A DNA stretch of 64,000 bases from a virus (taxonomy: Duplodnaviria > Caudoviricetes): the IMG/VR virus record IMGVR_UViG_3300028920_000023, one strand, 5' to 3'. The position numbers and the translations under genes are program-made. The number at the start of each line of letters is the position of its first letter. The first letter of the stretch is position 1. This document shows positions 6,675 to 45,039 of this stretch, in pieces. The notes beneath the pieces are model-generated. The model was given only the letters and a program-made list of their open reading frames with translations. It was not told where the DNA came from and did no database searches.

Positions 6675-7808
6675 ATGCTAACAATTATACACAGCTGCCC
6701 ACCAGAAAAACACGCACACTGTGCTACAATAGAGTGTGTTAAAACAGACGACATAAGAACATCAGGAACCTACATAGCATACTACGTAGGAAGCGAATGC
6801 ACAGACAAACAAAAAGTAAGAATAGACTTCCACCGAAACGAAAAAAACAACCACGAACTAAGAGCAACAACAGACCTACCATATAGAACAGGCAACTGCC
6901 TCCTGCTATCCAACCAAAACAAAGTCTACATCATCTACTCAGTATTCGAAGACATAGACGAACAAGGAAACACACCAAAAACACCAGTACAACGATGGGC
7001 CTACTGCTCAAACTGGATAAGAGAGATAACACTAACAGACACAATCGAACTAACAAAACCCAAAAAACTCAACCTAGAGCCAGGACACCTCGTACGCTGC
7101 CAAGCCATACAACACATAAACATAACCAGGATGATAACATACGCAATACCACTCTACAGAGAACACGACTGCTACGGCCTCATAATGGGAATGGGAATGG
7201 GATCAGGACTAATCGAACTAGGTAAAATAGGAAAATCAAAAGACGAATCCAAAACAAGATTCGGAAAAGGAAAACTCATACAACCAACACTATGGAACGA
7301 CCAAAACGGAAGACTACACTCCCTATCCAGGAACATAACACCAAAACCATACGCATGGTACAGCTACTCAGACACAAACGGAACATACTGGACAGAACCA
7401 GAACAAGTCAACGTAGACAACGCCAACAACTCACTAGTAACAATAAACCAAAACACCAAAAACCCAATACTAATCTGGAACCTAGGACACGACAGACACC
7501 GACTGGTACTAGGGAGATACGATACAGATACAAAAACCGCCACACCATACCTACAACTAAATATCGACACAGACATGGCAGGAACAGGCTCCTACCCCAA
7601 CTACGCAATAGACCACCTAAATAGACTACACATCGTATTCACAACAAACAGACGTGCAATCACAAGAATAATAATCGAAGAAAACGACCTAAAAACAATA
7701 GAAGAAAAAGCAAAAACCCTAGGAAAAATACTAACCTACAACGACCTAGACATGCCAGAATCACACCAACACGCATCATACCAACACGCAATGCAGAGAC
7801 GGAAATGA
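6675..7808 (+). CDS. Sialidase/BNR (Asp-box) beta-propeller glycoside-hydrolase-like protein
   Basis: HAHCATI N-terminus, Asp-box YSDTNGTYW, QPTL, C-terminal SYPNY..LHIVFT. Confidence 0.7.
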   Translation: MLTIIHSCPPEKHAHCATIECVKTDDIRTSGTYIAYYVGSECTDKQKVRIDFHRNEKNNHELRATTDLPYRTGNCLLLSNQNKVYIIYSVFEDIDEQGNTPKTPVQRWAYCSNWIREITLTDTIELTKPKKLNLEPGHLVRCQAIQHINITRMITYAIPLYREHDCYGLIMGMGMGSGLIELGKIGKSKDESKTRFGKGKLIQPTLWNDQNGRLHSLSRNITPKPYAWYSYSDTNGTYWTEPEQVNVDNANNSLVTINQNTKNPILIWNLGHDRHRLVLGRYDTDTKTATPYLQLNIDTDMAGTGSYPNYAIDHLNRLHIVFTTNRRAITRIIIEENDLKTIEEKAKTLGKILTYNDLDMPESHQHASYQHAMQRRK

Positions 7809-8311
7809 CCAAAATCCTAGACGTATGCTGCGGACCACGGTCCATGTGGTACGACCCAACAAACCCGAACGTAATATACGGAGACTGCAGAAACGAAACA
7901 ATAATAGTCAAAGACCAATCACACGGCAAAATAGGCGGAACAAGAAGTATACAAATCGCACCAGACATACTATTAGACTTCAGAACATTACCATTCTACA
8001 ACAACACATTCGACCTCGTAGCCTTCGACCCGCCCCACGCCAGAACAGGACCAAAAAGCTGGTTAGGAGCAAAATACGGAAAACTATCACCAAACTGGAA
8101 AGAAGATATCAAACAAGGATTCAAAGAATGCCTCAGAGTATTAAAAACAACAGGAACACTAATATTCAAATGGAACGAAACACACGTAAGACTGAGTCAA
8201 ATTATGAAACTCACCCCACATAAACCACTATTCGGGCAGGTAGCAGGAAGACACGGAAAAACACACTGGATGGTATTTATGAAGACTTCCTCTCATACTC
8301 CTCATACATAA
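7805..8311 (+). CDS. SAM-dependent methyltransferase (phage type, DPPH motif)
   Basis: ILDVCCGPRSMW motif I; DLVAFDPPH; FKWNE. Confidence 0.85.
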   Translation: MTKILDVCCGPRSMWYDPTNPNVIYGDCRNETIIVKDQSHGKIGGTRSIQIAPDILLDFRTLPFYNNTFDLVAFDPPHARTGPKSWLGAKYGKLSPNWKEDIKQGFKECLRVLKTTGTLIFKWNETHVRLSQIMKLTPHKPLFGQVAGRHGKTHWMVFMKTSSHTPHT

Positions 8312-8489
8312 CATACATCGTCTTCAACTCTTCCCGAGTCTCCATAATAATCTTCGCATTACTCTCATCATGTTTACCATATTCACCACCTACAGCATCA
8401 AGAAAACCTTCCCTATCACGAATAGCACAAAGCACAACATAAGACCTAAACTCATCCATATTCCTAAAATGCTTCGGAGCACGTGCCAT
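8277..8489 (-). CDS. Hypothetical protein
   Basis: Short ORF starting MARAPKHF, fills a gap. Confidence 0.5.
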   Translation of the reverse strand: MARAPKHFRNMDEFRSYVVLCAIRDREGFLDAVGGEYGKHDESNAKIIMETREELKTMYVMYEEYERKSS

Positions 8490-8540
8490 ACCAAATAATA
8501 CCACGAAACAATACAAATTAAAATTGTACATATAACAGTC

Positions 8541-9155
8541 ATGATTGGCTATATAATGTGCCTAGAATGCTCCGTAAAATACAGAGGAAGAGCCACCGGC
8601 GACCTCCCGCACGGAACATACCTAGTAATAATCAAACCAGACGGATCCATAAGCATACACAGCGCCAACTCACCACAACCAGTCAACCACCAATCCGGAG
8701 GATCTAAGTTTCAATACGGAGACAACCAAATTATAGCAACCAGAAAAAACGAAACAATTACAGTAAACATAACAAAAACCATCTGGGCACAACAAATCGA
8801 AAACTGGTCAACAAACAAACCAAAAATGAAGAAAACAGAAAACCACCTACGCGACAAAATAATAAGAAACATAGAAGAACTGCTAGAAGAACCAATCAAA
8901 AGCATAGAAAAAGAATTCAAAACACCATACGGCCCAGTAGACCTAGCAGCACTCGCAAGATCCGGAACACTGCACATTATAGAAATAAAACGCGGAAAAG
9001 CCAACATCAACGCCGCAACACAACTAAAGAAATACATAGAAGCACTAAATCAAGACAACATACAAGGATGGCTCATGAGTCCCGAGATATCGGAGGGAGC
9101 CCTTCGGCATCTTCACGATCACGACCTATCGTGGGTACCCGTGGAGCACGACTAG
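8541..9155 (+). CDS. nucS: Endonuclease NucS/EndoMS (mismatch-specific)
   Basis: CSVKYRGR, KPDGSISIH, PVN, ENHL, EFKTPYGPVDL, IEIKRG, QLKKY (intact PD-(D/E)XK and QxxxY residues). Confidence 0.88.
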   Translation: MIGYIMCLECSVKYRGRATGDLPHGTYLVIIKPDGSISIHSANSPQPVNHQSGGSKFQYGDNQIIATRKNETITVNITKTIWAQQIENWSTNKPKMKKTENHLRDKIIRNIEELLEEPIKSIEKEFKTPYGPVDLAALARSGTLHIIEIKRGKANINAATQLKKYIEALNQDNIQGWLMSPEISEGALRHLHDHDLSWVPVEHD

Positions 9156-9597
9156 AATCGCACACCGTGCAGGTATAAAACGCAGTCGCTATAGAATGCT
9201 TCGTATAAGCTTCACACAAATAACAATACTTGGAAACCAAAACACGATCCTCAGCAACAACTTCCTTTTTCTTCCGTTTCTTATTCTCCCTCACTATTAT
9301 AGCCCTAGATCTGCTCCCCCTAACGAAATCCTGCAACCAAGAATACCACAAACTAACCAACTCACTACGCCGCCTAGCGGAAGAATCACCAAACTCCATA
9401 CCATAAACCCTAGTAGGAATAACCTTAGAAACCAAAGCCCTACCATTGTCAAAAAATGGATACCATCTATCCACAAAATACGCAGGATACACCAAATCCT
9501 TATCAACAACAACTTTCAACTTTGTAGCTTTATCAGGTAAACGTTTAGGCTTATCGAATTTCTTATTAGTAAGAGACCTTCTAAGAGTAAAATTCAC
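9073..9597 (-). CDS. Hypothetical protein with C-terminal CxxC..CxxC
   Basis: 174-aa ORF; overlaps the nucS 3' end. Confidence 0.55.
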   Translation of the reverse strand: MNFTLRRSLTNKKFDKPKRLPDKATKLKVVVDKDLVYPAYFVDRWYPFFDNGRALVSKVIPTRVYGMEFGDSSARRRSELVSLWYSWLQDFVRGSRSRAIIVRENKKRKKKEVVAEDRVLVSKYCYLCEAYTKHSIATAFYTCTVCDSSRAPRVPTIGRDREDAEGLPPISRDS

Positions 9598-9926
9598 CGC
9601 CTCATTCTCGACTTAGCAAAAGCATCCCTAATCTGCTTATGAGGAGACTTATATTTCTTATCTTTATCAATCTTAAGATTCAAAGCAACCTGGAGAACCG
9701 GCTCAATCCTATCCTTAATCTCCTCCAAAGTCTTAGCATCACCAACAGAACCCTGCAACCAATATAACTTAGTATCGCCCTTAGAGGGCATTATAACTAA
9801 ATCCTCAATAGGTAAAACAGACTTATTAACCTTCAACCAATCCGCCATCTGCATAGATAAAGCCCTGGACATATACTCCGGAACACCAGCCATATCTATC
9901 GTCAATATCAAAGTCCTTCTATCCAT
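9594..9926 (-). CDS. Hypothetical protein
   Basis: 110-aa ORF with GAGGA RBS. Confidence 0.75.
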   Translation of the reverse strand: MDRRTLILTIDMAGVPEYMSRALSMQMADWLKVNKSVLPIEDLVIMPSKGDTKLYWLQGSVGDAKTLEEIKDRIEPVLQVALNLKIDKDKKYKSPHKQIRDAFAKSRMRR

Positions 9927-10040
9927 AACATCCTCATATCATCTTAATTAAAAAACCAACCACAAATATCGCCAAGAATATATACATCGCATATCGCAGA
10001 ATCTTATCAAAATGAGTTTTGTGCACATTATCATATTGCA

Positions 10041-10535
10041 TTATGGCCCTCTCCTAGGTCTGATTTTCTCAAGTTCCTCATTCAACCTATTAACAAACTT
10101 AGCTAACTTCTCATTATCAGAATGCAACTCAGACATCAATTGCGCAATATTATCTATGCGCCTATCCAACTGCCCTCCCCACCAGACCTTGACACCAGGT
10201 TGGTCCTGAATATTAACATCATGCCACTTATATAATTCTGTAACTTTTGAAGAGACATTATTAATAATAAGCTTTTGTTCTTCTTGAGCTCTAGCAATAC
10301 TTTCAAGACGACGATATACTTCCGCTTGGGGAAGCTCAATAATCTGGCTTTGAGACGGAGACTTCTCATCAGCAGACCCTTTCCTACGCTCCTGAAATAC
10401 CTTCAGAAAACCAAAAACCTCCTTAAGAATAAGTATAGCCAGAACACCGCCAGCGCCAAGAGCTGTTAACTTACTATCCCAATCAGCCTCGGCGACAACA
10501 AGATTATTGTAAGCCCAAAATATATTTTCGTACAT
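10041..10535 (-). CDS. Membrane-anchored coiled-coil protein (possibly holin-like)
   Basis: One hydrophobic helix LTALGAGGVLAILIL followed by coiled coil. Confidence 0.65.
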   Translation of the reverse strand: MYENIFWAYNNLVVAEADWDSKLTALGAGGVLAILILKEVFGFLKVFQERRKGSADEKSPSQSQIIELPQAEVYRRLESIARAQEEQKLIINNVSSKVTELYKWHDVNIQDQPGVKVWWGGQLDRRIDNIAQLMSELHSDNEKLAKFVNRLNEELEKIRPRRGP

Positions 10536-10607
10536 GAGGTTGCTCCAGTCAATCCCGGTTTGCACATCGGGCTTCCATAATATGTTTGGAGTAGAGTAAA
10601 TAAAAAC

Positions 10608-10973
10608 ATGAATGACAACCCACTAAAATCAATAAACAAACACTTCAAACCCCTAAGCTCGAAAATAACAGAACATCTCATATTCAACATAAGAAGAATC
10701 CGATGGGGCCAAAAAGAAGAAAACAAACAAAAATGCAAACAGAAATATCTAGAATTAATATACGCAACCACCTACCACCAATGGATAATCCAACACAACC
10801 AACTAATGTCCCAAGCTCAAATCGAATATCTAGGATGCTTCGGAGAAACGTGGATAATCCGATCCCTATTCGTACTAAAAGACTTCATAAACCGAGAATT
10901 TGAAGAACAATGGGAAAAAGCCGGAGAAAGACCCAAATGGCTCAACGCTTGCAAAACAAAATCCCAAAATTAA
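10608..10973 (+). CDS. Hypothetical protein
   Basis: 121-aa ORF. Confidence 0.6.
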   Translation: MNDNPLKSINKHFKPLSSKITEHLIFNIRRIRWGQKEENKQKCKQKYLELIYATTYHQWIIQHNQLMSQAQIEYLGCFGETWIIRSLFVLKDFINREFEEQWEKAGERPKWLNACKTKSQN

Positions 10974-11235
10974 ACATCACAGTAGTCCTATCATTCTTAC
11001 CCCGCTTGATAAGCATAAAAGCCGTCAAACCATTCCGAATACCAAAAGGACTATTTTGAGCAACCAAATCTTCAACCAAACCACTATAAATCTGTTTACA
11101 CAAACCCCTAGTCATATCCAACTTACAACCCTCAAACTCATGAGAAATATTCTTAGATGAAAAATACTCATAAGCATGCTCAGAAGCATGCTCAATCATA
11201 GGATCAAGATGAGTCAACAACTCAGTAATATTCAT
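10942..11235 (-). CDS. Hypothetical protein
   Basis: GGGAG RBS then ATG at 11235. Confidence 0.65.
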   Translation of the reverse strand: MNITELLTHLDPMIEHASEHAYEYFSSKNISHEFEGCKLDMTRGLCKQIYSGLVEDLVAQNSPFGIRNGLTAFMLIKRGKNDRTTVMFNFGILFCKR

Positions 11236-11287
11236 ACAAACTCCCAAAGGTATTTTTAAAGTATATAACAACAAAAAGGAGAACAAA

Positions 11288-11482
11288 ATGAACTACCGAG
11301 AAATCGTAAACCAAATAAGAGAAGCCAAAAACCACAAAATAACACCAAGCACACAACAAGGAAAAGTCAACATCGAAATACAAACACAAGACGGGAACTG
11401 GAAAAAGATCCTATCAGACGTATCACAAGGAATAGCAGAAGACACCGTCAGACAAGCACAAAACCGACTACTCCTAGGCTAA
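11288..11482 (+). CDS. Hypothetical protein
   Basis: AAGGAG RBS, 64 aa. Confidence 0.75.
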   Translation: MNYREIVNQIREAKNHKITPSTQQGKVNIEIQTQDGNWKKILSDVSQGIAEDTVRQAQNRLLLG

Positions 11483-11498
11483 AAGGATTAAAGACGTT

Positions 11499-12209
11499 CT
11501 ACCCCCCACACAACTTATTCAAATCCAGAAGATAATCACCTTCATCAACAGAAAATACCGATTGACAATCCTCACAATAATAAGAAGGACGCTCATAAGG
11601 ACCACCAGAACAGAAATTCAAATTCTCATGAGGACACTCCAACTGAATCCGGGACAATTCCCTCTCAAGATCCATTATCTCAGACTTCAAATCATCAATC
11701 TCAAGATGAATATTACGAACCCTAACAGAAACACGCTCCAACCTAGGCTCCATAACATTCTCAACACAACTCATCAAAGTACCTAAAGAACCATCATTCT
11801 TAATAACAGCCACAGAAGGAGCAGACGAAACATCATCCATAGTCAGAGGGTCAGTACTCCCAGGCTCCGTACGACCATGAACATAAATAACCAACTGAAA
11901 CCAAGACTTAACAGCATCAAACTCATTCTTAGGACGAACCCCAGAAACAACCCAACCACGCCTCAAACACTCCCTAACAAAATACCCAGGATCATCCTTC
12001 TGTTTTCCCTTACCGAACTCAAACAACCGCTCCCGAAAATCCTCTTTTCTCTCACAGACCTCCTCGGGAGTAATACCCAGACTATCGGCAAACTCCTTGA
12101 TAATGATCGCAGAACAATCGGTAGCCGTGGTACCGAGCATCTCAGCAACCTTATTAGCTACCGTAGTCTTGCCGCCCTTGCTAGGACCTACAACTAGGAC
12201 CCTGAACAT
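11499..12209 (-). CDS. P-loop kinase (deoxynucleoside monophosphate kinase-like) with C-terminal Zn ribbon
   Basis: VLVVGPSKGGKTT Walker A; KEDFRERL; VSGVR..NEF; IKNDGSL; CPHE..CEDC. Confidence 0.75.
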   Translation of the reverse strand: MFRVLVVGPSKGGKTTVANKVAEMLGTTATDCSAIIIKEFADSLGITPEEVCERKEDFRERLFEFGKGKQKDDPGYFVRECLRRGWVVSGVRPKNEFDAVKSWFQLVIYVHGRTEPGSTDPLTMDDVSSAPSVAVIKNDGSLGTLMSCVENVMEPRLERVSVRVRNIHLEIDDLKSEIMDLERELSRIQLECPHENLNFCSGGPYERPSYYCEDCQSVFSVDEGDYLLDLNKLCGG

Positions 12210-12210
12210 C

Positions 12211-12588
12211 TTATGGCTCCTTTCTGACTTCAGGTAATGAAGGAAGATACCCCAAAGCACTATTAATATTACGTTCTAAACCCATTCTACGTTTCTCTTG
12301 ATTATCAATAAATTTCTTCATCTCAGCTCTATTAGAAGCAAAGAAAAAACCTTTACTATTGCTAATAATAGGAACACCACAATCATTAAACAAGATTTTA
12401 ACAGCCTTCCTAATCAAATTATCCTGAGCAGAATCAATAAGACCAAGAGCATTAGAAATCTGCTTAGCAGTCTTAGAATTCTCACTACCATACGCGAACC
12501 TATGCACAAATATCGTAATAGATTCTAATAACTCTATAGGTACCTCAGAAGTATTCTTCTTGGGAACAGCAGAATGAATATTGGTCAT
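12211..12588 (-). CDS. Winged-HTH-like protein
   Basis: TAKQISNAL..IRKAVKIL..GVPIISNSKGFFFA pattern; ATG at 12588. Confidence 0.6.
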   Translation of the reverse strand: MTNIHSAVPKKNTSEVPIELLESITIFVHRFAYGSENSKTAKQISNALGLIDSAQDNLIRKAVKILFNDCGVPIISNSKGFFFASNRAEMKKFIDNQEKRRMGLERNINSALGYLPSLPEVRKEP

Positions 12589-12593
12589 TTGAA

Positions 12594-12682
12594 TGGTACC
12601 CGGAGCGGGACTTGAACCCGCACGATAGTTACCTATCAACGGATTTTAAGTCCGTTGCGTCTGCCAATTCCGCCATCCGGGC
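12594..12682 (-). tRNA. tRNA-Leu (UAA), CCA encoded
   Basis: GCCCGGA/TCCGGGT acceptor stem, anticodon arm ACGGA-CTTAAAA-TCCGT, long variable arm, GGTTCAAGTCC T-loop, ACCA 3' end. Confidence 0.96.
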
Positions 12683-12775
12683 TCCAAGACATAATATCAC
12701 GCCAAAATCACCACAAAAATGATCAGTGAATCTACAGCGAGAATTAAACATTGAACTGGTTTCTTTCTTAGGAGC

Positions 12776-36790: not shown

Positions 36791-36825
36791 TGGACAGGTA
36801 ACCGTTCTGGGAGGGAGGAAGGAAC

Positions 36826-37461: not shown

Positions 37462-37515
37462 TGCGACTGATGAGGCTTTGGCCGAAACAGAGGAGGGTGT
37501 TTCTCTGTTTGTGTT
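37462..37515 (+). ncRNA. Hammerhead-like motif (family B)
   Basis: Core identical to the 36738 copy. Confidence 0.6.
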
Positions 37516-37539
37516 TTCCTGTGAGGAAGGGGGTTTGTG

Positions 37540-38145: not shown

Positions 38146-38150
38146 GTTGG

Positions 38151-38203
38151 GTAGGCTGATGAGGCTTTGGCCGAAACAGAGGAGGGTGTTTCTCTGTTTG
38201 TGT
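38151..38203 (+). ncRNA. Hammerhead-like motif (family B)
   Basis: Core identical to the 36738 copy. Confidence 0.6.
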
Positions 38204-38237
38204 TTTCTTGGGAACGGGAAGTGTTTTGGAGGAAATA

Positions 38238-38756
38238 ATGATGTATGAGGTTACGATGTTTGAGAGCAGTATTGAGGCTGCGGTGACTCGTCGGGATAAG
38301 GATTTGGAAACGGCGATTCTTGCGGCTCATAATGAGTTGATGAGGCGGCACCAGGGTGATGATTCGTGTAGGCTGAATCGTTATTGTGGGGCTTGGTCGA
38401 AGCCATCTAATCCCGAGGAGCGGCATAATCTTAGTGGGTCTGAGCCGGATTTTAGTGAGGGGGTTGTGTTGATTTGGTGTTTTGACCGGATGACGGTTGT
38501 GGAGGGTGTTGCCAGGAAGATTTTGGACAGGTCGGTTGTGTTTGTGGTGATTTCTGATCAGGAAGGTGATTTGGATGCTAGGGAGTTTGGTGGTTTGGGG
38601 GAGGCTTTGGTTTATTTTAATGAGATGCGTGAGGTGTTTGGTCTTACTGTTGGTGATTGCGGGCATGATCCTGGTTTGGTGACTGAGGAGTGGTTGGCTT
38701 CGTATAATTTGATGGCTGATGATGGGGAGGCGCGTGTTTGCTTGAGGTCTAGGTGA
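38238..38756 (+). CDS. Hypothetical protein
   Basis: GGAGG RBS. Confidence 0.75.
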   Translation: MMYEVTMFESSIEAAVTRRDKDLETAILAAHNELMRRHQGDDSCRLNRYCGAWSKPSNPEERHNLSGSEPDFSEGVVLIWCFDRMTVVEGVARKILDRSVVFVVISDQEGDLDAREFGGLGEALVYFNEMREVFGLTVGDCGHDPGLVTEEWLASYNLMADDGEARVCLRSR

Positions 38757-38760
38757 GGGG

Positions 38761-38813
38761 TTGTGCTGATGAGGCTTTGGCCGAAACAGAGGAGGGTTTT
38801 TCTCTGTTTGTGT
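38761..38813 (+). ncRNA. Hammerhead-like motif (family B; stem I all G.U wobble)
   Basis: UGUG-CUGAUGA...CUCUG-UU-UGUG. Confidence 0.6.
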
Positions 38814-38985
38814 TGTTTGTGTTGTTTGTGTTGTTTTTGTTTTGTGGAAGGAGGTTTTCATGTCTACAGGTTGTTAGGAAGGGGAGTGGTGATGTTCTTG
38901 GTGATTGTTATGAGGCTTTGGCCGAAACAGAGGAGGGTGTTTCTCTGTTTGGTTTGTACGTGGTTCTCGATTCGGAGGTGGGATT

Positions 38986-39186
38986 ATGACGAGCTTTGAT
39001 GGAAGGACGTGGATTCAGCAGACTGGGGCTGTGCTTCGGTTGGGGCGGGATGGCAATATGCGTCCTGCTGGTAAAAACCAGGCCAGGCGGGCTATTCGCC
39101 GCTTGGGTGGTCAGGAGCGTGCTGAGATGTGTAGGTTGTGCTTGGCGCGGGCGCTGCGGTTTGCTTTTCCTGGGAGGAAATGTTGA
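38986..39186 (+). CDS. Small basic protein
   Basis: GGAGG RBS. Confidence 0.55.
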   Translation: MTSFDGRTWIQQTGAVLRLGRDGNMRPAGKNQARRAIRRLGGQERAEMCRLCLARALRFAFPGRKC

Positions 39187-39259
39187 GGCTTTGGCCGAAA
39201 TAGAGGGATGTTTTTCTCTCTGTTTGTGTTTCTGAGTTGTTTGTGGAAAGGAGGTGGGT

Positions 39260-39605
39260 ATGGCTGGGCGGGTTCTGGAGGATGGTTTCGAGATTGGTGA
39301 TCTTAAGGATGAGTTTGGGGCGGAGGCGCTGGAGTGATCTTAAGGATGAGTTTGGGGCGGAGGCGCTGGAGAAGTTGGAGTTGATGGATCCTGCTAGCCT
39401 CAAGACGTCGAAGATTCAGAAGCAGAAGGTTGAGGGTGTTGGGCGTGTTGAGTGCTGGGTGGATGCGTGCTCGGTGGATGCGGATATGGGCCATGTTCGT
39501 TTCTGGCGTCTTCTCGATGTTGTCGATGGGGAGGGGGTTCCGGTTGTTCTTGAGGAGGATTATGGTGAGGGTTTGCTTTTTTATGGGCGGAATTACACTC
39601 TCTGA
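39260..39605 (+). pseudogene. Gene broken by an exact 37-nt tandem duplication
   Basis: 39298-39334 duplicated at 39335-39371; creates a stop and a frameshift. Confidence 0.75.
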
Positions 39606-39641
39606 TGAGTTTCGAATCCTTTTCCTTCGTGGAGGGGGATG
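39601..39641 (+). ncRNA. Hammerhead-like motif (family A)
   Basis: CUGAUGA-G(UUU)C-GAA-UCCUUUUCC/GGAGGGGGA. Confidence 0.5.
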
Positions 39642-39665
39642 TTAACCTTAACAAAGGAGGTGGTG

Positions 39666-40028
39666 ATGGCGAAGGGTGAAGAGAACAAGAAGGACAGTCT
39701 CTTGCGTGCTTACGATGAGTTTTGTGAATTGCTTGATAAAATTCAGGATGGCGAGGGGAGGATTCTCGAGGACGAAGAGAAGAATGCTCTTCTTGGATTG
39801 TTGATGAACAGTGGAGACAAGGAGTTGGCGTGTGTTGGTTTGTTGATTGGTTCTTTGGATAAGGTGAGGTTGTCTTCTTCTGGGGGTGTTTGGTCGATAG
39901 GTCTCGGCGTTCTGGGCGATTTTGATGTTGTTTTGTCGTTCAGAGAGTCCGAGCATGATGAGCTGGGTCGTGGCGATGAGAAGAGTGGCGATCCAAAGGA
40001 TAAAACAGTTCTTAGGAAAAACAATTGA
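39666..40028 (+). CDS. Hypothetical protein (may continue in the +1 frame to 40200)
   Basis: AAAGGAGG RBS. Confidence 0.65.
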   Translation: MAKGEENKKDSLLRAYDEFCELLDKIQDGEGRILEDEEKNALLGLLMNSGDKELACVGLLIGSLDKVRLSSSGGVWSIGLGVLGDFDVVLSFRESEHDELGRGDEKSGDPKDKTVLRKNN

Positions 40029-40294
40029 GGGCAGATATGAGCAAGGGCTCCTTCACATCTGTTGCAATGGCGAACAGATGTCAAGTGTTACTGTGTCCGA
40101 TTCCGAAGGATCCAGAAAAATCTTCGAGGGTATTCTCGGAGCTATTGACAAGATAAAAGTTTCCGATATAGACTTTACCAATAACCAACCAAAATCCTAG
40201 GGGGTGTCATGGAGCATTTTTTCGTTTGCGAGGGGCCGTGTATTTGTCATCAGACGATCGAAACCCTCCGCCACGAAAGGTGCTGGTGAGGAAT

Positions 40295-40335
40295 CCTGAT
40301 GAGTTTCGAATCCTTCTCCTGACTGGAGGGGGAAG
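40295..40335 (+). ncRNA. Hammerhead-like motif (family A)
   Basis: CUGAUGA-G(UUU)C-GAA-UCCUUCUCC/GGAGGGGGA. Confidence 0.5.
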
Positions 40336-40386
40336 TGTTTTCCTTGTTGGAAATTGGTTGGTTTGTTAACCTCGGGAGGATTTGGT

Positions 40387-40674
40387 ATGACCAGGATCTA
40401 CAGAGTGACGGAGGAGGAGAAGGAGATTTTGGTGGCTTTGCGCCGGAAGGGTGAGAAGTGTAGCCAGATGATCGCTCGTCTCACCGCAGCGATTGCCGAA
40501 CTTGATTCGGTTCCTCCTAAACCTATTCGGGCCGTTAGTCATCGGTTCGATTTTGAGCGATCTGAACTTGAGACTATCAAAGCAAAGGCCGAGGAGCTTG
40601 AGACCACCGTGATCCATTTGCTCATTTACACGGCACGACAATTGGTGGAAAAGGAAAAGGCCGGCAAGCTCTGA
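40387..40674 (+). CDS. Small DNA-binding protein (tandem ribbon-helix-helix-like)
   Basis: RIYRVTEEEKEIL.. and RFDFERSELETIKAKAEEL.. Confidence 0.6.
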   Translation: MTRIYRVTEEEKEILVALRRKGEKCSQMIARLTAAIAELDSVPPKPIRAVSHRFDFERSELETIKAKAEELETTVIHLLIYTARQLVEKEKAGKL

Positions 40675-40690
40675 TATTTGTTCACGTTCC

Positions 40691-40731
40691 TCTGATGAGT
40701 TTCGAATCCTTTTCCTTCGTGGAGGGGGAAG
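40691..40731 (+). ncRNA. Hammerhead-like motif (family A; duplicate of 39601)
   Basis: Near-identical to 39601, including the downstream RBS. Confidence 0.5.
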
Positions 40732-40752
40732 TTACCCTAACAAAGGAGGACA

Positions 40753-40992
40753 TTGATGATGCGATGGAAGATGCTGCCCCGAAATAAAAGGAAGTCGATC
40801 AGGAAGAAGTTTAGCGAGAAGGTTAATGCGCTGATCCACTATCTGGAGTCGTACGTCGGGGACAACTACGCAGGGAATTCCTCTGTGAGTCAGTTGAATA
40901 ATGTCTGGGGCAAGTTCAACGACTGTTGTCCTTTGGACTTCGATGGTATTGGTGATGAGAGTAGGAATCAAGATGGCGGGAAGTTACCCTAA
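40753..40992 (+). CDS. Hypothetical protein
   Basis: AAAGGAGG RBS. Confidence 0.65.
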   Translation: MMMRWKMLPRNKRKSIRKKFSEKVNALIHYLESYVGDNYAGNSSVSQLNNVWGKFNDCCPLDFDGIGDESRNQDGGKLP

Positions 40993-41031
40993 CAAAGACG
41001 ATGAGGACGATGAGGACGATGAGGACTGAAT

Positions 41032-41071
41032 CCTGACGAGTTCGAATCCTTCTCCTAAATGGAGGAGGAAG
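41032..41071 (+). ncRNA. Hammerhead-like motif (family A; duplicate of 40295)
   Basis: CUGACGA-G(UU)C-GAA-UCCUUCUCC/GGAGGAGGA. Confidence 0.5.
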
Positions 41072-41157
41072 TGTTTTCCTTGTTGGAAATTGGCTGGTTT
41101 TGTTAACCCTCGGGAAGATTACCGAGAAATGAAGAACCCGTTTTGAAAGGAGAGGCG

Positions 41158-41448
41158 ATGAACACCAAGAGCGTCGAGTTTGGGATTTTGATCCAGGGCT
41201 GCACTTACAGGGACCTTCGTGCCGTCCTGCCGCTGAGCAAGGACGGAGATCCTTGTTTGGCATGTGAAGATCATGTGGTTGAGTCTGCAAATGAAGATGG
41301 TCCTGAGCACTATGTTAGTTTCGGTGTCTTGCAGCATGGCGCTGAGGTTCCTGTTGTTGGTCCTAATGTTGAGTATTGGACCAATGCGATTAAGTCTGGT
41401 GTGAAGGGGGCTAGGGCCAAGTTTGCTATTCTTGAGGTTTGGCGGTGA
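41158..41448 (+). CDS. Hypothetical protein
   Basis: AAAGGAG RBS. Confidence 0.75.
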   Translation: MNTKSVEFGILIQGCTYRDLRAVLPLSKDGDPCLACEDHVVESANEDGPEHYVSFGVLQHGAEVPVVGPNVEYWTNAIKSGVKGARAKFAILEVWR

Positions 41449-41664
41449 TTTAGGGGTTTTTATTTGTGTTTTTCTGTTTGGTGTGGGTGGTTGGTGTTTG
41501 TTTTTATATGCTTTGTGTGGGGGGTTTGTATTTGTTCTTATATTCTTGATTGAGGGAGTTGTTTGACAAGGGGTTTCTTTAGGCTGACAAGTATTTGTGT
41601 GGGGGCAGGGGGATACGACTGCACTGGGTGTTTTTTGACTGGAAACCTTGCTGAGGAGGTTGTG

Positions 41665-41886
41665 ATGTTTGTGATTACTGGTCGAGATGGTTCTGGCAAG
41701 ACTTGGTATTGGCGGAAGTGGACTGGGGCCTGCAGCAGTGGCCATCCGAAATGGGTGGAGCGGTTCTCTCCTAAGTGCATCTACGCACAACGGAAGGTCG
41801 CCGAGAAGACTGCGGCAGGGAGTGCGGTCATTAACGCATTTCGCAAGGGAGATCCGGTCCCTTTATCCGATGTTAGAGTGCTTTGA
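41665..41886 (+). CDS. Hypothetical protein
   Basis: GAGGAGG RBS. Confidence 0.6.
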   Translation: MFVITGRDGSGKTWYWRKWTGACSSGHPKWVERFSPKCIYAQRKVAEKTAAGSAVINAFRKGDPVPLSDVRVL

Positions 41887-42056
41887 TCCTGTTATGACAG
41901 CAAATCCGAAAAAGAGGCAGAAGGTGCAGAAGATAGCCAGCAGAGACCTCATTTTGGGCAAGCGTCTGCTGGACCTCTAGAGAGGAGGATGTGGCTGAGT
42001 ACTGTGGTTTGATGCGGAGGCGGAAACGGTCGAACGAGAGGATACGGAGGAGCATT

Positions 42057-42386
42057 ATGCTTATTTGGGATAGCGAAAGTGAGAATGATCAACCTACACC
42101 GATCGAGGAAGATCGGTTTTACCGGTCTCTGGGTGAGGATAATGGCGTCTTAATTGTGGACAGTTGTGAGACGTCTGATTCACGAACGACGGTTTTGTTG
42201 TTTGTGGGTCCGAATTCCAAGGAGAATTGGACTAAGTGGAATGAGTTTGCCCGCCTCATCCGCCTCATTGCAGATGAGGAAGTCGTTACCGAATGGCCGG
42301 ATGAGGAGTTGGATCTGGACGATATAAGCAAGTGCCTCAAGAAGTGTTTTGACCCACCAACCCAACCATCTTGTGCGTGCACATGA
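42057..42386 (+). CDS. Hypothetical acidic protein
   Basis: GGAGGAG RBS. Confidence 0.7.
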   Translation: MLIWDSESENDQPTPIEEDRFYRSLGEDNGVLIVDSCETSDSRTTVLLFVGPNSKENWTKWNEFARLIRLIADEEVVTEWPDEELDLDDISKCLKKCFDPPTQPSCACT

Positions 42387-42439
42387 AACACGTTGCATTT
42401 GTCAAGCATTAAACTAATCCCAGGAAAGGAATTCGCGCC

Positions 42440-42610
42440 ATGAAAAAAGATATCAGGATTGGAATGCAGGTTAGTTGGTCCATTTGTCACGGAAAAAGGA
42501 TTTTGAAAGGCACCGTAGTCGGCGTGAACCTAGGACGTAAATGGGATATGCTTACCGTGAAATTGCCTAACGGTGTTCTTATCACGGTTCCGGACTACGA
42601 ATGCAGATAG
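42440..42610 (+). CDS. 56-aa SH3/KOW-like protein (not in the ORF track)
   Basis: AAAGGA RBS; MKKDIRIGMQVSW..KGTVVGVN..LTVKL. Confidence 0.6.
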   Translation: MKKDIRIGMQVSWSICHGKRILKGTVVGVNLGRKWDMLTVKLPNGVLITVPDYECR

Positions 42611-42647
42611 TTTCGCGCAACTAAATTCGGCAAAGGAAATAACCACC

Positions 42648-42791
42648 ATGGTTTCGATGACTGTCGTGCTGTTCTGCAATGGGACAGAGAAGAAAATTGG
42701 TCATCAGCTCGATGCGAAATCTCTACCTATCTTGAACAACTTGAGAAAGAACGCAAAGAACTGGCCTGAGGAAGCTCGGGTTATCTGGTGA
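42648..42791 (+). CDS. Hypothetical 47-aa protein
   Basis: AAAGGA RBS; stop lies inside the next motif. Confidence 0.5.
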   Translation: MVSMTVVLFCNGTEKKIGHQLDAKSLPILNNLRKNAKNWPEEARVIW

Positions 42792-42830
42792 GGCTGGCCG
42801 AAACAGAGAGATGTTCTTCTCTGTTTGTGT
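42784..42830 (+). ncRNA. Hammerhead-like motif (family B, A6G)
   Basis: CUGGUGA-GG(CUGG)CC-GAAA-CAGAGA..UCUCUG-UU. Confidence 0.45.
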
Positions 42831-42856
42831 TGTCTGTTTTTCTTTAAGGAGGGTTA

Positions 42857-43174
42857 GTGATGAGTGAGAAGAGTGGTGACTATAAAGCAAGTTTTCTTGT
42901 GGTTGAACGAGATGATGCCATCTTGATTCCGGAAGATTCGGTTCCCGGATTTACTTCAGTCCTGTTGGAATTTGGGGACGGGGTCACACTCGGACAAATC
43001 GAAGAAAGCGATGTAGTTCTTTTGGAGAACCAAAACACACTCAGATTCGAACGATGCACTCCCGGTGACTGGGACAGCAAATACACGCAGTGGGAAAGAG
43101 CCGGATGGGATCCGATAGGGTTCGAGTCAGTAAGGCTGTACTCGACTTACGAGGAATATCAAAAGATTTGTTGA
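42857..43174 (+). CDS. Hypothetical protein
   Basis: AAGGAGG RBS. Confidence 0.75.
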   Translation: MMSEKSGDYKASFLVVERDDAILIPEDSVPGFTSVLLEFGDGVTLGQIEESDVVLLENQNTLRFERCTPGDWDSKYTQWERAGWDPIGFESVRLYSTYEEYQKIC

Positions 43175-43241
43175 CGGGTCGTGGAGGGCATTGCCAGGAA
43201 GGATTACTGTTTTCCAATGATTCTTGCGAAAGGAGCTGTTC

Positions 43242-43727
43242 ATGTCTACAGATTATGAGTCTTCTGCAGTTCACGGTTTTTGGCTAGATGTTGAAGACCT
43301 TGGGTCTCTAAAGAAGATCCGGGAAGAGAAGAGCCATATGGAGCCCCGCTACGACCCAAAGACCGGCGAGAAGAGGGAAGTAAAGGTCATCGACGTACAC
43401 GGGGGAGATTTCTATTTTCTAGACGGCATCTGGTGCGAGACGCCCTATGACCTGGCAGAAGCGATCCGAAGTAAGCTGCGCCAGTATCGCACCAGACCAA
43501 CAACGGCCCCGCACGCCCCAGCCGATGACCCCGATGTCCACATCCACCAGGAAAAGGACGGCAGCATAACAGCTCTCGTCATTGGCTACGAGATCAGCCA
43601 CAAGCCACTACAAGAGATACAACTCACAGATGCAAAATTGAAGTCTTGTTTGCCTCGTGTTCAGGAGTTGCTATCTGGTGTCGATTTGGGGTTGACAGGA
43701 GTACATCCGACGTTGCTTGTTGGGTGA
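43242..43727 (+). CDS. Hypothetical protein
   Basis: AAAGGAG RBS. Confidence 0.75.
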   Translation: MSTDYESSAVHGFWLDVEDLGSLKKIREEKSHMEPRYDPKTGEKREVKVIDVHGGDFYFLDGIWCETPYDLAEAIRSKLRQYRTRPTTAPHAPADDPDVHIHQEKDGSITALVIGYEISHKPLQEIQLTDAKLKSCLPRVQELLSGVDLGLTGVHPTLLVG

Positions 43728-43854
43728 GTCTTTTGGTCCGTCAAGGAGGACAGCATGAGCGACTTAAAGATCTTTAACGGTCTAGCCTGTCCTGACCCCA
43801 ATGTGGACCTTGCTGGTGCCGTGAAACGTTCGCTAAATGGTGAAAGCTAGTTCT

Positions 43855-43905
43855 ATTCTGAAGAGGCTCCTGCCGAAACCGAGAATTACACTTCTCTGTT
43901 ATTCC
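43855..43905 (+). ncRNA. Hammerhead-like motif (family B)
   Basis: CUGAAGA-GGC(UCCU)GCC-GAAA-CCGAGAA..UUCUCUG-UU. Confidence 0.5.
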
Positions 43906-43974
43906 TGCATTACCTGATTCCATGCCAGACACAACACTGGCTAGACGGAACTTCCATACCACAAAGGAGAAAAC

Positions 43975-45039
43975 ATGAACAACACACAACTACTAGAGAA
44001 GCTCAATAAAACCGGCAAACTAACCCAAAAACAAATGGAAAAACTAGCCAGACACATGACAAGGGCATCCAGGGAAAGGCAGCTAGAAGCCATAAGGCAA
44101 TGTGGATACGCTCTCTGCTTTATCGAAAACCCAACAGAAGAAATAGAACTAGAAGCCGTAAAACAAAACGGCTACGCTATCGACTATATCAAGAACCCAA
44201 CAGAAGAAGTACAACTAGAAGCCGTAAAACAAAACGGCGGAGCTGTCAAGTTTATTGACAACCCATCCGAGACTGTCCAGTTAGAGGCAGTAAAGCAAAA
44301 CGGAGAAGCCATCAGACGTATCGAAAGCCCATCCAAGGAAGTGCAGCTAGAAGCCGTAAAACAAAACGGATTCGCTATCCAGTATATCGATAACCCATCC
44401 AGAGAAGTCCAGCTAGAAGCCGTAAAACAAAATGGCTACGCTCTCCAACATATCACTATCCCATCTAGGGAAGTACAGCTAGCGGCAATAAAACAAGCCG
44501 GAGGTGCTATCCGATACCTTGAGAACCCAACAGAAGAAATACAACTAGAAGCAGTAAAGAAAGCTGGCACAACCATCAGACATATCAAAAACCCAACAGA
44601 AGAAATACAACTAGAAGCAGTAAAACAAAACGGCGGAGCTGTCAGGTTCATCAAGAACCCAACACAAGAAATACAACTAACAGCAGTAAAACAAACTGGA
44701 ATGGCCATCGAGCATATCGAAAACCCAACAGAAGAAATAAAACTAGCAGCCGTAAAACAAGACGGAAATGTTATCCGGTATATCGAAAACCCAACCAAAG
44801 AAGTACAGCTAGAAGCCGTAAAACAAAACTGCGCAGCAATCCGGCATATTAGGAGCCCCACAGGAGATCTGGAAGTATTATCCCTAATGCTCAGGCTTAA
44901 TGGCGATTACGACATGGCACACAGAACAGCCAAAACCCTATACGAAGACATGAGCAAAGACGACCGAGAAAAACTCAAGGACAGCCTAACCAGATCCAGA
45001 AGCGCATTGGCTGGCGGTGGCCGCACACTGGACATCTGA
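43975..45039 (+). CDS. DUF4116-like 22-aa repeat protein, paralog 1
   Basis: Repeated QLEAVKQNGYAI.YI.NPTEE. Confidence 0.88.
   Translation: MNNTQLLEKLNKTGKLTQKQMEKLARHMTRASRERQLEAIRQCGYALCFIENPTEEIELEAVKQNGYAIDYIKNPTEEVQLEAVKQNGGAVKFIDNPSETVQLEAVKQNGEAIRRIESPSKEVQLEAVKQNGFAIQYIDNPSREVQLEAVKQNGYALQHITIPSREVQLAAIKQAGGAIRYLENPTEEIQLEAVKKAGTTIRHIKNPTEEIQLEAVKQNGGAVRFIKNPTQEIQLTAVKQTGMAIEHIENPTEEIKLAAVKQDGNVIRYIENPTKEVQLEAVKQNCAAIRHIRSPTGDLEVLSLMLRLNGDYDMAHRTAKTLYEDMSKDDREKLKDSLTRSRSALAGGGRTLDI

Follow-up and report, generated by a model that had tools for sequence, protein, structure and literature searches.

Extreme strand-fixed A+C versus G+T skew, with a sharp reversal of sign, in a large phage-like genome

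The window analysed here, 64,000 nucleotides long, is part of a large, uncultured phage-like genome (136-kb contigs are on record, and a 355-kb one in a protein index) and carries a very large strand asymmetry. Almost all freely changeable positions are A or C on the plus strand and G or T on the minus strand, whatever the gene direction, and one 10-kb block shows the opposite. The skew is real, fixed to the DNA strand, filtered by selection and larger with longer residence. Segment totals and cumulative skew confirmed the extreme asymmetry of the original prediction, and its three hand counts were exact on recount (A+C 52/60 at 28321-28380 and 44/60 at 20101-20160; G+T 54/60 at 37321-37380). 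Plus-strand A+C by segment was as follows:
3357-28830: 0.688 (z=60 against 0.5), with GC skew -0.38 and AT skew +0.37
14411-28830: 0.734
28831-33407: 0.615
33408-40028: 0.309 (z=-31)
40029-43305: 0.431
43306-64000: 0.592; plus-strand genes with moderate A+C (59%) and position-3 A+C of 0.6-0.85
Per 250 nt, the extremes were 0.94 at 28251-28500 and 0.20 at 35251-35500, and in single 1-kb windows the GC and AT skews both reached ~0.6-0.7 at once. Cumulative keto skew and third-position skew, the checks proposed with the prediction, were both computed. The cumulative curve begins its rise at ~2.3 kb, reaches its maximum at 33,416 and turns again at a local minimum at 43,305, with a detrended excursion of 5,484 (mean 309 and maximum 568 in 200 shuffles), and the skew is strong at position 3. 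We know of no stronger strand asymmetry in double-stranded DNA.

That the skew might simply track transcription was checked and does not hold, because genes of both orientations between 3.4 and 33.4 kb (~37 in all) share one plus-strand sign. The ~10 plus-strand and 18 minus-strand genes of 3.4-28.8 kb are interleaved, with at least 11 orientation changes, and nine small plus-strand genes at 28.8-33.3 kb have the sign of the A+C block. The predicted independence from gene direction holds over 3.4-33.4 kb for homology-backed genes of both strands alike. Genes with the A+C-block sign include:
4615-6600, minus strand: GT2/TPR gene, homology-backed
6675-7808, plus strand: BNR gene, homology-backed
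17488-18027, minus strand: HD gene, homology-backed
18024-18674, minus strand: dCTP deaminase gene, homology-backed
19234-19932, minus strand: collagen-like fibre gene, homology-backed
22511-23707, minus strand: gene that shares 42% identity with a homologue in related locus L001, homology-backed; its PHROG match, to a sialyltransferase, is weak
24895-27333, plus strand: helicase gene, homology-backed
In the gene at 22511-23707, every one of the 397 third positions scored is G or T on the coding strand; a bias above 100 to 1 (0/397) is, to our knowledge, without precedent for replication skew and counts against replication as the cause. We regard as very unlikely an origin of the skew in transcription, with the non-template strand exposed (for instance in R-loops, which G-rich RNA favours) and both blocks flanking a divergent promoter region at ~33.3 kb. 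All genes of the G+T block are on the plus strand, so that their non-template strand is the G+T-rich one, and the spacer in which the sign flips contains a weak leftward promoter-like match (33338-33311). However, promoter matches barely exceed the shuffled expectation (19 vs 10.4, sd 4.3), the ~10 plus-strand genes of 3.4-28.8 kb (among them PurZ-like, helicase, NucS and BNR) have a coding-strand composition opposite to that of their 18 minus-strand neighbours, and at 28.8-33.3 kb and 44-64 kb the plus-strand genes are rich in A+C instead of G+T.

As predicted, the skew belongs to the DNA strand. It peaks at synonymous and non-coding sites: third codon positions and spacers are near saturation, and codon positions 1-2 and protein homology are preserved, which supports a mutation pressure. 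Plus-strand position-3 A+C is 0.75-1.00 in ~28 genes of both orientations in the A+C block (3357..28830). At four-fold sites A is 0.5-0.9 and C 0.1-0.45, A far exceeding C, and in most genes neither G nor T is above 0.1. The PurZ-like gene (14411..15637, plus strand), a homology-backed adenylosuccinate-synthetase homologue, has 92% A/C at position 3 (A 0.53, C 0.39, G 0.06, T 0.02), and its positions 1-2 agree with unskewed relatives of 40-56% identity. The most skewed sequence consists of spacers and unconstrained open frames (A+C 0.94 at 28251-28500). Protein composition tracks the skew, as had been claimed: the shares of residues K/N/T/Q/H/P and G/V/W/C/F/L are 41% vs 21% in plus-strand genes of the A+C block, 22% vs 36% in its minus-strand genes and 17% vs 40% in the G+T block.

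The explanation that we tentatively place first is a long-acting, strand-fixed mutation pressure arising from single-stranded exposure in replication, filtered by selection and stronger than that on the mitochondrial heavy strand. We infer such exposure as the cause of the skew, and likewise any reason for its strength. One DNA strand would steadily lose A and C over evolutionary time, mainly to T and G, with the forward pressure so far above the reverse changes that a two-letter alphabet is nearly reached wherever selection permits, namely at third codon positions, spacers and loosely constrained residues. The end state would be a G/T affected strand and an A/C partner, with protein sequences and RNA hairpins kept by purifying selection. 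The affected strand would be the minus strand over 3.4-33.4 kb and, weakly, over most of the remaining readable sequence, and the plus strand from 33.4 to ~43 kb. One parental strand may remain single-stranded far longer in replication, gathering damage such as C to U, A or Z to a G-pairing base, and purine loss giving T. Damage of single-stranded DNA is the accepted source of skew for the mitochondrial heavy strand and bacterial leading strands. The direction of the skew agrees with that on the heavy strand, as originally proposed, A and C being lost from the G+T-rich strand. In the older block T is the main sink on the affected strand (four-fold T 0.5-0.9), which fits deamination and purine loss on single-stranded DNA. 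The purine and pyrimidine axes are both saturated, an observation at odds with single-stranded exposure. At 28.8-31.1 kb the pyrimidine axis is strong (C far above T) and the purine axis is not, the opposite of what would be expected if C deamination were fastest.

In animal mitochondrial DNA, under the strand-displacement model, G+T likewise predominates on one strand and A+C on the other; gene orientation does not affect the skew, which is strongest at four-fold sites, is tracked by protein composition and is attributed, as here, to damage of the single-stranded strand. In contrast to animal mitochondrial DNA, both axes are essentially saturated here (0/397 minority bases; four-fold G and T at most 0.1), the element is phage-like and at least 136 kb long, the sign flips amid genes of a single orientation, the strength differs from one module to the next, and no strand-displacement machinery was identified in the ~97 kb examined. 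This stretch also showed neither a DNA polymerase nor a replication-mode gene, a point against the exposure model. The mitogenome of Galdieria sulphuraria has a GC skew of 0.74, published as the highest among eukaryotic mitogenomes, and its authors infer mutation bias with one-directional replication, the same kind of cause (PMC4316638). There too the extreme skew pervades the genome, is not inverted by antisense genes and is greatest at four-fold sites (PMC4316638). The Galdieria skew is, however, one of purines against pyrimidines (G and A together), whereas here amino bases (A with C) are set against keto bases, the GC and AT skews reach ~0.6-0.7 together per 1-kb window, and a block of opposite sign is present.

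Further features within 3.4-33.3 kb are:
8541..9155, plus strand: NucS/EndoMS mismatch-endonuclease homologue, homology-backed, with the D..E.K nuclease motif aligned
12594-12682: tRNA-Leu, adjoining the next gene
12776..14296, minus strand: LAGLIDADG and Mom-like gene, homology-backed, weakly skewed (position-3 A+C 0.62) within the saturated block
27988..28476, plus strand: open frame of nearly all A and C, with a 97-nt pure A/C run at 28377-28473
28496-28824, plus strand: 62/84-nt tandem repeats, followed by four 29-nt iterons (28921-29160)
28831..33256, plus strand: small genes with hammerhead-like spacers, with the sign of the A+C block but uneven
The LAGLIDADG-Mom gene is read as a younger insertion, and its weak skew is what would be expected of a mobile-type gene if skew grows with residence time. 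The open frame, whose hypothetical product contains T/Q/N/P/H/K only, is probably unconstrained sequence at the end point of the pressure. Position-3 A+C in the small genes is lowest (0.60-0.69) at 29.2-31.1 kb and in the paralogue at 32515-32874, is highest (0.87-0.95) at 31.4-32.4 kb, and stands at 0.74 in the gene next to the flip.

The NucS homologue is a candidate modifier of the mutation spectrum. NucS-family enzymes act on G/T-type mismatches (G/T, G/G and T/T). Missed A.C, A.A and C.C mispairs (Z.C if A is replaced by Z) could thus add A or C to the nascent strand, and a strand copied by a less accurate route would turn A+C-rich through uncorrected mispairs rather than damage. We consider this unlikely. 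The gene is rare in phages (4/50,697 records) and lies within the A+C block, the recognised and ignored mismatch classes split along the G/T versus A/C axis, which would account for transitions and transversions together, and a PurZ-like gene is present. Yet the specificity comes from literature on archaeal and actinobacterial enzymes, the filter is strand-symmetric and so needs a replication asymmetry besides, other PurZ-carrying relatives are unskewed, and the sign flips are unexplained. The evidence for the Z-base idea is the one PurZ-like gene, which scores below the NCBIfam PurZ cut-off (136.8 vs 300 bits). The neighbouring HD protein looks like a small alarmone hydrolase and gave no match to DatZ in the PDB, and no DatZ, MazZ or DpoZ was found among the scanned window proteins or the stored family hits of flanking gene calls, to ~97 kb.

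Somewhat less probable still is selection for the composition itself, in which A/C and G/T strands lacking palindromes, mixed amino/keto sites or hairpins would escape restriction and other defences directed at sequence, or gather base modifications on a single strand. Palindromic hexamers thin out to 5.9-7.3 per kb where the skew is greatest (9.4 per kb in 43-64 kb; 15.6 expected in random equal-base sequence), transversions and transitions both go toward the favoured letters, and base-modification genes (the Mom-like domain and the PurZ-like gene) are present. However, palindrome loss is an automatic result of composition, selection per synonymous site would be minute, most of the genome, likely structural regions included, is only mildly skewed, and the younger insert, with its weak skew, is explained as well or better by slow mutational drift.

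The sign reverses sharply at 33.4 kb. The flip, originally placed at ~33.1-33.4 kb with genes staying on the plus strand, exists and is refined here to a single spacer, across which position-3 A+C falls from 0.74 (gene ending 33256) to 0.14 (gene from 33408):
33257..33407: flip spacer; contains a spacer element that was duplicated recently, and the motif AGCAAGAGCTGCCAAAT twice
33408..43305, plus strand: G+T block of ~20 small genes
43975-46456, plus strand: DUF4116-repeat genes, the first of the moderate A+C segment
Genes at 33.4-43.7 kb were assigned to the plus strand by codon periodicity, purine-rich first positions, Shine-Dalgarno-like sites and public gene calls, and had no family matches. 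Position-3 A+C is 0.03-0.15 at 35.3-39.6 kb and reaches 0.5 by 43 kb, and four-fold sites have G ~0.45 and T ~0.5. The return to A+C was predicted at ~43.3 kb; the turn lies at 43,305 but is gradual over 38-44 kb rather than abrupt.

The flip is not a misassembly, because independent assemblies cross it without mismatches: four assemblies or contigs from separate samples span 33.4 kb and two independent assemblies span the 43.3-kb turn, with 0 mismatches in each case, which rules out a chimeric join at either turn. One contig spans 28.5-28.9 kb, also with 0 mismatches. Several assemblies break at the repeats of 28496..29160 (some at 28.5-28.8 kb), where copy number differs among samples, and the composition confuses gene callers. 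Nonetheless three pipelines (JGI, ENA MEGAHIT-style and Logan) and several samples gave the same sequence, repeat lengths aside, and post-replication conversion would strike all codon positions equally, yet positions 1-2 and homology are intact. An artefact of chimeric assembly, or of modified or chemically converted bases misread, is therefore extremely improbable.

Under the mutation-pressure explanation the 33.4-kb flip would be a change of replication polarity, origin-like or from a moved block. In bacterial and phage genomes the leading strand is G- and T-rich, and the sign changes at origin and terminus. The skew here is likewise independent of transcription: the 33.4-kb turn, with A+C to its left and G+T to its right on the plus strand, has the polarity expected of an origin and fits diverging forks, and the graded 43.3-kb turn has that of a terminus. 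In contrast to those genomes, where skews are typically several times smaller, the implied replichores are 10 kb and the whole remainder, and lone-gene flips elsewhere misfit. The predicted origin-like switch near 33.3 kb agrees in polarity, but no DnaA-box cluster or initiator gene was found at 33.4 kb, and iterons lie 4.3 kb away (28.9-29.2 kb); this want of independent origin marks weighs against the exposure model, and an origin there is possible but unproven. The ~100-nt patchy flips do exist; they follow individual genes and spacer elements. Multiple initiation zones are not needed, since the patches are single genes, the weakly skewed homing-endonuclease gene and spacer elements, a pattern that points to modules differing in age or orientation.

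The two sides of the flip share a family of spacer elements. Against the zone-3 consensus, the G+T-block copies show 79 changes to G/T and 12 to A/C, as expected of the directional decay claimed originally. The claim that this decay consists of A>G and C>T did not stand: 53 of 98 changes are transversions, with A>T and C>G common. Since about half of the changes are transversions, deamination alone is insufficient for the motif decay, and as the whole cause of the skew it also fails to match the excess of A over C at four-fold sites. The transversion share of these directional changes is a point against single-stranded exposure as well. The G+T-block spacer hairpins still pair, via G.U wobbles, which is the signature of a pressure filtered by structure. 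APOBEC- and ADAR-type hypermutation resembles this in its strand-coordinated changes to T and G and its blocks with sign switches. Unlike such hypermutation, the sequence here shows long selection filtering, with codon positions 1-2 intact, and many transversions, and the changes are identical across samples, between which no SNPs were found.

Module rearrangement also makes flips, because lone genes of extreme skew and either sign occur farther along beside ordinary neighbours, at 86.6 and 95.4 kb (position-3 A+C 0.14) and 92.7 kb (0.93). No replication-polarity model accounts for these, so the G+T block may itself be rearranged, and block rearrangement is a live alternative for its source. 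Position-3 A+C also ranges over 0.35-0.94 among co-oriented neighbours at 69-81 kb; such unevenness within a presumed replichore does not sit well with the exposure model. It is possible, if doubtful, that history rather than an origin explains the reversal: a genome-wide, one-directional pressure (for example from unidirectional or rolling-circle replication) would leave the plus strand A+C-rich, the G+T block would be a long-resident module later inverted or moved, or imported reversed from a similarly skewed relative, single flipped genes would have the same origins, and ordinary-looking genes would be recent arrivals. Consistent with this, skew changes are module-sharp without a change of gene orientation, the left edge of the block is sharp (<150 nt) and coincides with the recent spacer-element duplication, and the homing-endonuclease gene, weakly skewed, shows that composition reflects residence time. 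Against it, an inversion requires ~20 co-oriented genes and sense-strand spacer elements to have pointed leftward before, the right edge is a smooth gradient across 11 genes with no breakpoint, no convincing inverted repeats flank the block (the best is an 18-nt match, 34266/43595, without extended homology), and the blocks are not simple mirror images, G being about equal to T here and T far above G on the affected strand of the other. Beyond both blocks, most genes of either orientation lean to plus-strand A+C, including the minus-strand DNA-ligase cluster (0.86-0.94), as a genome-wide pressure would have it. The skew arose in this lineage, because 23 related loci (20 PurZ-related and 3 ligase-related) are unskewed, with A+C of 0.42-0.58 per kb.

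The original prediction had described, from three hand counts, an extreme A+C versus G+T skew of the + strand, and all three counts were exact on recount. The A+C content of the + strand is listed below by segment. Single 250-nt windows reached extremes of 0.94 and 0.20, and positions 28377-28473 form a 97-nt run of A and C only, where a run of about 16 nt would be expected by chance. Cumulative keto skew, which had been proposed as a check, had its maximum at 33,416 and a local minimum at 43,305, an excursion 10 times the largest among 200 shuffles.

Table. A+C content of the + strand.
3357-28830 (A+C block): 0.688
14411-28830: 0.734
28831-33407: 0.615
33408-40028 (G+T block, first part): 0.309
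40029-43305 (G+T block, second part): 0.431
43306-64000: 0.592

The window appears to belong to a large uncultured tailed-phage genome and has the following features.
1-2608 (gene 2-2608), - strand: collagen-repeat fibre gene, more than 869 codons
8541-9155, + strand: NucS/EndoMS mismatch-endonuclease homologue
12594-14296, - strand: LAGLIDADG-Mom fusion and tRNA-Leu(TAA)
14411-15637, + strand: PurZ-like adenylosuccinate-synthetase homologue
17488-18027, - strand: HD protein, small-alarmone-hydrolase-like
24895-27333, + strand: SF2 helicase
29-44 kb, + strand: run of about 30 small genes
Elsewhere in the window: a GT2/TPR protein; a BNR protein; a dCTP deaminase; a collagen-like tail-fibre protein; DUF4116-repeat proteins, subtilase, AAA and DUF2201 proteins

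No relative of the helicase above 27% identity was found, megablast with 20-32 kb of the window gave no match among GenBank phages, and no report of such a phage was found in the literature or through the sample identifiers. The collagen-repeat gene at 1-2608 comprises about 260 Gly-X-Y-coding units of 9 nt, has 61% G+C and lacks the skew; a public 136-kb contig terminates within it.

The skew is independent of gene direction, as had been claimed. Between 3.4 and 28.8 kb, about 10 + strand and 18 - strand genes, with at least 11 changes of orientation, share one sign: + strand A+C at third codon positions (position-3 A+C, whatever the gene orientation) was 0.75-1.00 in all of them, compared with 0.45-0.75 at positions 1-2, and at four-fold sites neither G nor T exceeded about 0.1. 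Position 3 of the PurZ-like gene had A 0.53, C 0.39, G 0.06 and T 0.02, while its positions 1-2 were as in unskewed relatives of 40-56% identity. All 397 scored third positions on the coding strand of the - strand gene 22511-23707 were G or T; this gene was confirmed by a 42%-identical homologue in a related locus, L001. The + strand genes at 35.3-39.6 kb had position-3 A+C of 0.03-0.15, with four-fold G of about 0.45 and T of about 0.5. The most extreme skew was found in spacers and apparently unconstrained ORFs.

Since the skew is strongest at position 3 and in spacers, in both gene orientations, it is a property of the DNA strand, and codon choice for translation was rejected as its source. 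Two gene classes with different codon usage were also rejected: in the A+C block the class would have to alternate with every change of orientation, and the spacers have the same skew. The sign does not track transcription direction, the outcome that the original prediction had named as counting against it; interleaved + and - genes at 3.4-28.8 kb are opposite in coding-strand composition, and + genes at 28.8-33.3 kb and 33.4-43 kb have opposite skew signs. Transcription, selection for composition and artefact are the weaker candidates as causes. Protein composition follows the skew as predicted, with amino-acid usage pulled opposite ways on the two strands. The skew accumulated over evolutionary time, filtered by selection on proteins, and a post-replication origin was rejected.

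Matching sequence is available from two JGI samples, in three ENA assemblies and in Logan assemblies of two runs; its longest contigs measure 136,479 nt and, per the protein index, 354,787 nt. The overlaps compared had no base mismatch to the window, repeat-length differences apart. The misassembly check showed that the flip at 33.4 kb is crossed, likewise with no base mismatch, by four contigs from different samples or pipelines.
L034, JGI 3300031111: covers 26939-39272
L035, ERZ27252208
L036, ERZ27252236
L037, Logan SRR8554434
One of these four extends across the repeats at 28.5-28.9 kb as well, and two further contigs cross the turn at 43.3 kb. The sign flips are not an assembly artefact. 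Contigs differed from the window in repeat-unit copy numbers and two short indels and in nothing else; no SNPs were found between samples, and mismatches between samples in the BLAST tables were off-register alignments of repeats. A 12-nt sample difference at 36281-36292 lies within a (TTTTTC)n run. A 4-nt indel between samples at 37219-37222, near the 3' end of gene 36826-37263, shortens the called product, otherwise 145 residues long, to 137.

The G+T block begins abruptly on its left side: position-3 A+C is 0.74 in the + gene ending at 33256 and 0.14 in the + gene starting at 33408. The spacer element at 32877 is duplicated, nearly identically, in the 150-nt spacer at the flip, where a 17-nt motif also occurs twice. 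The motif AGCAAGAGCTGCCAAAT is present as two direct copies at 33271-33347, in this spacer, and as one inverted copy at about 31240-31262; its copies overlap weak sigma-70-like promoter matches. The region at 28.8-33.3 kb is not neutral and has the sign of the A+C block, with position-3 A+C of 0.60-0.95. The right edge is graded over eleven genes between 37.5 and 43.2 kb (position-3 A+C 0.03, 0.09, 0.15, 0.27, 0.37, 0.33, 0.25, 0.35, 0.35, 0.52 and 0.51), and the value then reaches 0.78 at the DUF4116 gene. A monotonic trend is absent from the A+C block, the only smooth gradient being that on the right of the G+T block (0.03 to 0.5, 38-43 kb). Apparent patches of 100 nt correspond to genes of ordinary composition (e.g. 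at about 35.8-36.25 kb) and G/T-rich spacer elements.

An origin-like switch had been placed near 33.3 kb. Its polarity is indeed that of diverging forks, and the G+T/A+C axis of mitochondrial-type strand displacement is matched here; an independent mark at the site was not found. A DnaA-box search gave no cluster, the flip spacer lies outside the AT-richest 100-nt windows, and iterons and tandem repeats are at 28.5-29.2 kb, away from the flip. To our knowledge, phage origins have no universal signature. A change of replication polarity behind the flip is quite possible, at slightly under even chances. Rearrangement of blocks under a genome-wide pressure, which we consider somewhat less likely as the source of the flip, can reverse the sign on its own, as single-gene flips elsewhere in the genome show; the search for inversion footprints around the G+T block found an 18-nt inverted match without extended homology and nothing more.

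Positions 28496-29160, upstream of the first small gene, hold five tandem repeats of 62/84 nt, in each of which a - strand hairpin precedes a run of T, and then four 29-nt iterons. Samples differ here in the iterons, by one 77-nt unit, and in the tandem array, by 146 nt, and several assemblies end in this region. Its role could be regulatory, or it could be an origin or an end of the genome.

About 33 kb to the right of the window was read in other contigs of the same genome. Most genes there, in both orientations, have a + strand A+C lean of 0.55-0.8, and the strength of the skew shifts module by module without a change of gene orientation. A DNA-ligase cluster at 72.0-75.4 kb (- strand; 13309-16743 of contig L031), comprising an NAD-dependent DNA ligase and three small neighbours, is as skewed as the A+C block, with position-3 A+C of 0.86-0.94, and among its co-oriented neighbours the value is 0.35-0.47 on one flank and 0.62-0.74 on the opposite one. 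Three single genes are extreme: those at 86.6 and 95.4 kb have 0.14, and one at 92.7 kb has 0.93. Sign and strength are thus not uniform within a presumed replichore, with values of 0.14-0.94 among neighbours at 69-96 kb and isolated genes of opposite sign. Within the A+C block, the weak skew of the LAGLIDADG-Mom gene (0.62) suggests a recent mobile insertion. From the module-wise strengths and single-gene flips, the genome is a mosaic of modules that differ in their time and orientation under the pressure. This mosaic weakens the proposal of multiple initiation zones wherever each flip is taken to mark one.

The direction of change was read in spacer elements with hammerhead-like cores, of which there are about 22, located between the small genes (29639-43900 on the + strand, and also 57314 and 59205). 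The elements have the core CUGANGAG...CGAA (CGAAAC or CGAAUC) followed by a hairpin, as in these examples.
29631-29693, + strand: spacer element
29926-29980, + strand: spacer element
36743-36790, + strand: spacer element
Copies 29639 and 29926 fold as a textbook three-stem hammerhead with a GUC site, and an Rfam search of the elements returned no hammerhead even at E up to 1. One family occupies both sides of the flip. Over 40 well-aligned columns, copies in the G+T block differed from a consensus built on those at 30.8-33.4 kb by 79 changes towards G/T versus 12 towards A/C (C>T 27, A>T 24, A>G 15, C>G 13), with transversions making up 53 of 98 directional changes. The predicted drift of decayed motif copies towards G/T is thus present, but it is not exclusively A>G and C>T, about half of the changes being transversions. 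Pairing in the hairpin stems is kept as C-G and U-A pairs become U.G wobbles. The skew illustrates the extent to which proteins and RNA structures can accommodate extreme mutation pressure, through opposite amino-acid usage on the two strands and this G.U-wobble rescue of hairpins.

At four-fold sites of the A+C block, A greatly exceeds C in either gene orientation; T is therefore the main sink on the affected strand, the one losing A and C. At 28.8-31.1 kb the C/T axis of the + strand is strong and the A/G axis is not. These two observations, together with the transversions, contradict a spectrum of deamination only. The changes fit single-strand damage that includes purine loss plus deamination, and also fit any process disfavouring A and C on the affected strand. 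Hypermutation by APOBEC/ADAR-like editing was rejected, as positions 1-2 are conserved, transversions are common and sample assemblies show no mismatches. Rare variants in the DUF4116 repeats had no directional bias (0.40 versus 0.38 per site), and polarised amino-acid replacements against relatives (20 events in the ligase, 11 in PurZ) had no clear direction and were dominated by selection. The collagen repeats are too constrained for reading the direction of change, and singletons among the G+T-block spacer copies are too few for a spectrum.

Best supported as a cause is a mutation pressure of the mitochondrial heavy-strand kind that is strong, long-acting and asymmetric between the strands. 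On this account the exposed or poorly corrected strand would be the G+T-rich one, the polarity at 33.4 kb would reflect diverging forks, and the graded return would be the diffuse end of a short rightward replichore.

Mismatch escape is a further lead, in which NucS-type specificity would set the A/C versus G/T axis. The NucS family acts on G/T, G/G and T/T mismatches. Such specificity would leave exactly the A/C-type mispairs uncorrected, all adding A or C to the nascent strand. This would yield the axis seen here and account for transitions as well as transversions, provided that some further asymmetry distinguishes the two strands. The homologue at 8541-9155 matches Pyrococcus abyssi NucS at E 2e-26 with the D..E.K motif aligned, and NucS homologues were found in 4 of 50,697 phage records, the best being archaeal Halogranum tailed virus 1.

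The PurZ-like gene scored 136.8 bits against the NCBIfam PurZ model (cut-off 300) and 139.9 bits against the archaeal-type PurA model (cut-off 368). The best solved relatives of its product were 6FM1/6FKO (87 bits), named 'adenylosuccinate synthetase' by the depositors, which we take to be cyanophage S-2L PurZ; the chain named PurZ, 7ODX, scored 68.5 bits. The nearest isolate was Flavobacterium phage MaF61 (35% identity). No MazG-like or PolA families or MazZ/DpoZ-like genes were found among the scanned window proteins or the family matches of flank gene calls, to about 97 kb, and the HD protein had no PDB match to DatZ. Unskewed relatives also carry a PurZ-like gene. This DNA may contain Z, which may or may not bear on the skew. 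The HD protein, phage-encoded and closest to small alarmone ((p)ppGpp) hydrolases of the Mesh1/SAH type, adjoins the dCTP deaminase and a kinase-like gene.

This lineage could have a replication or base chemistry without a described counterpart, a reading we regard as distinctly unlikely. Over large parts of the genome, one strand would be so exposed or poorly corrected that neutral sites reach a two-letter alphabet per strand, possibly because deamination yields bases that are legitimate in this DNA (G from Z and, in a U-containing genome, perhaps U from C) and the sole mismatch nuclease sees G/T-type mismatches. An A/C-versus-G/T duplex, in which palindromes and mixed recognition sites can hardly occur, may then be retained as a general means of evading defences.

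The public gene-call index lacks the PurZ-like gene and has the opposite-strand ORF 14635-15000 (-) in its place; the mis-assignment arises because stop codons are scarce on both strands. Standard gene callers fail on this DNA, this gene being the one case checked, and surveys may therefore mis-annotate or overlook similar genomes.

Twenty loci carrying PurZ relatives (27-56% identity) had A+C of 0.42-0.58 per kb, and three carrying ligase relatives (35-38% identity) were also unskewed, at 0.43-0.57 per kb; the skew is therefore lineage-specific, as far as collections show. Ligase relatives at 56-61% identity keep the local gene order AAA / DUF6744 / WGR / ligase and have amino-acid usage that looks ordinary, the closest having 60% identity and the same local synteny. 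Scanned for in viral contigs, the spacer motif matched once, an unrelated chance occurrence.

We know of no stronger strand asymmetry in a double-stranded DNA genome, and synonymous-site saturation is complete in places. The closest known cases are mitochondrial strand asymmetries, of which the Galdieria mitogenome is the published record; its GC skew of 0.74 was attributed to mutation bias combined with one-directional replication (PMC4316638). In contrast to these, the A/G and C/T axes are both near saturation in this phage, the genome is large and phage-like, and the sign changes partway along a series of co-oriented genes. We class the phenomenon as known in kind and unprecedented in magnitude. 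It offers a natural system in which to separate the sources of strand bias, namely single-stranded damage, polymerase error, mismatch-repair specificity and non-canonical bases.

Two paralogous small + strand genes, 29230-29589 and 32515-32874, are 81% identical over 300 nt and encode CxxC...CxxC zinc-ribbon-like motifs.
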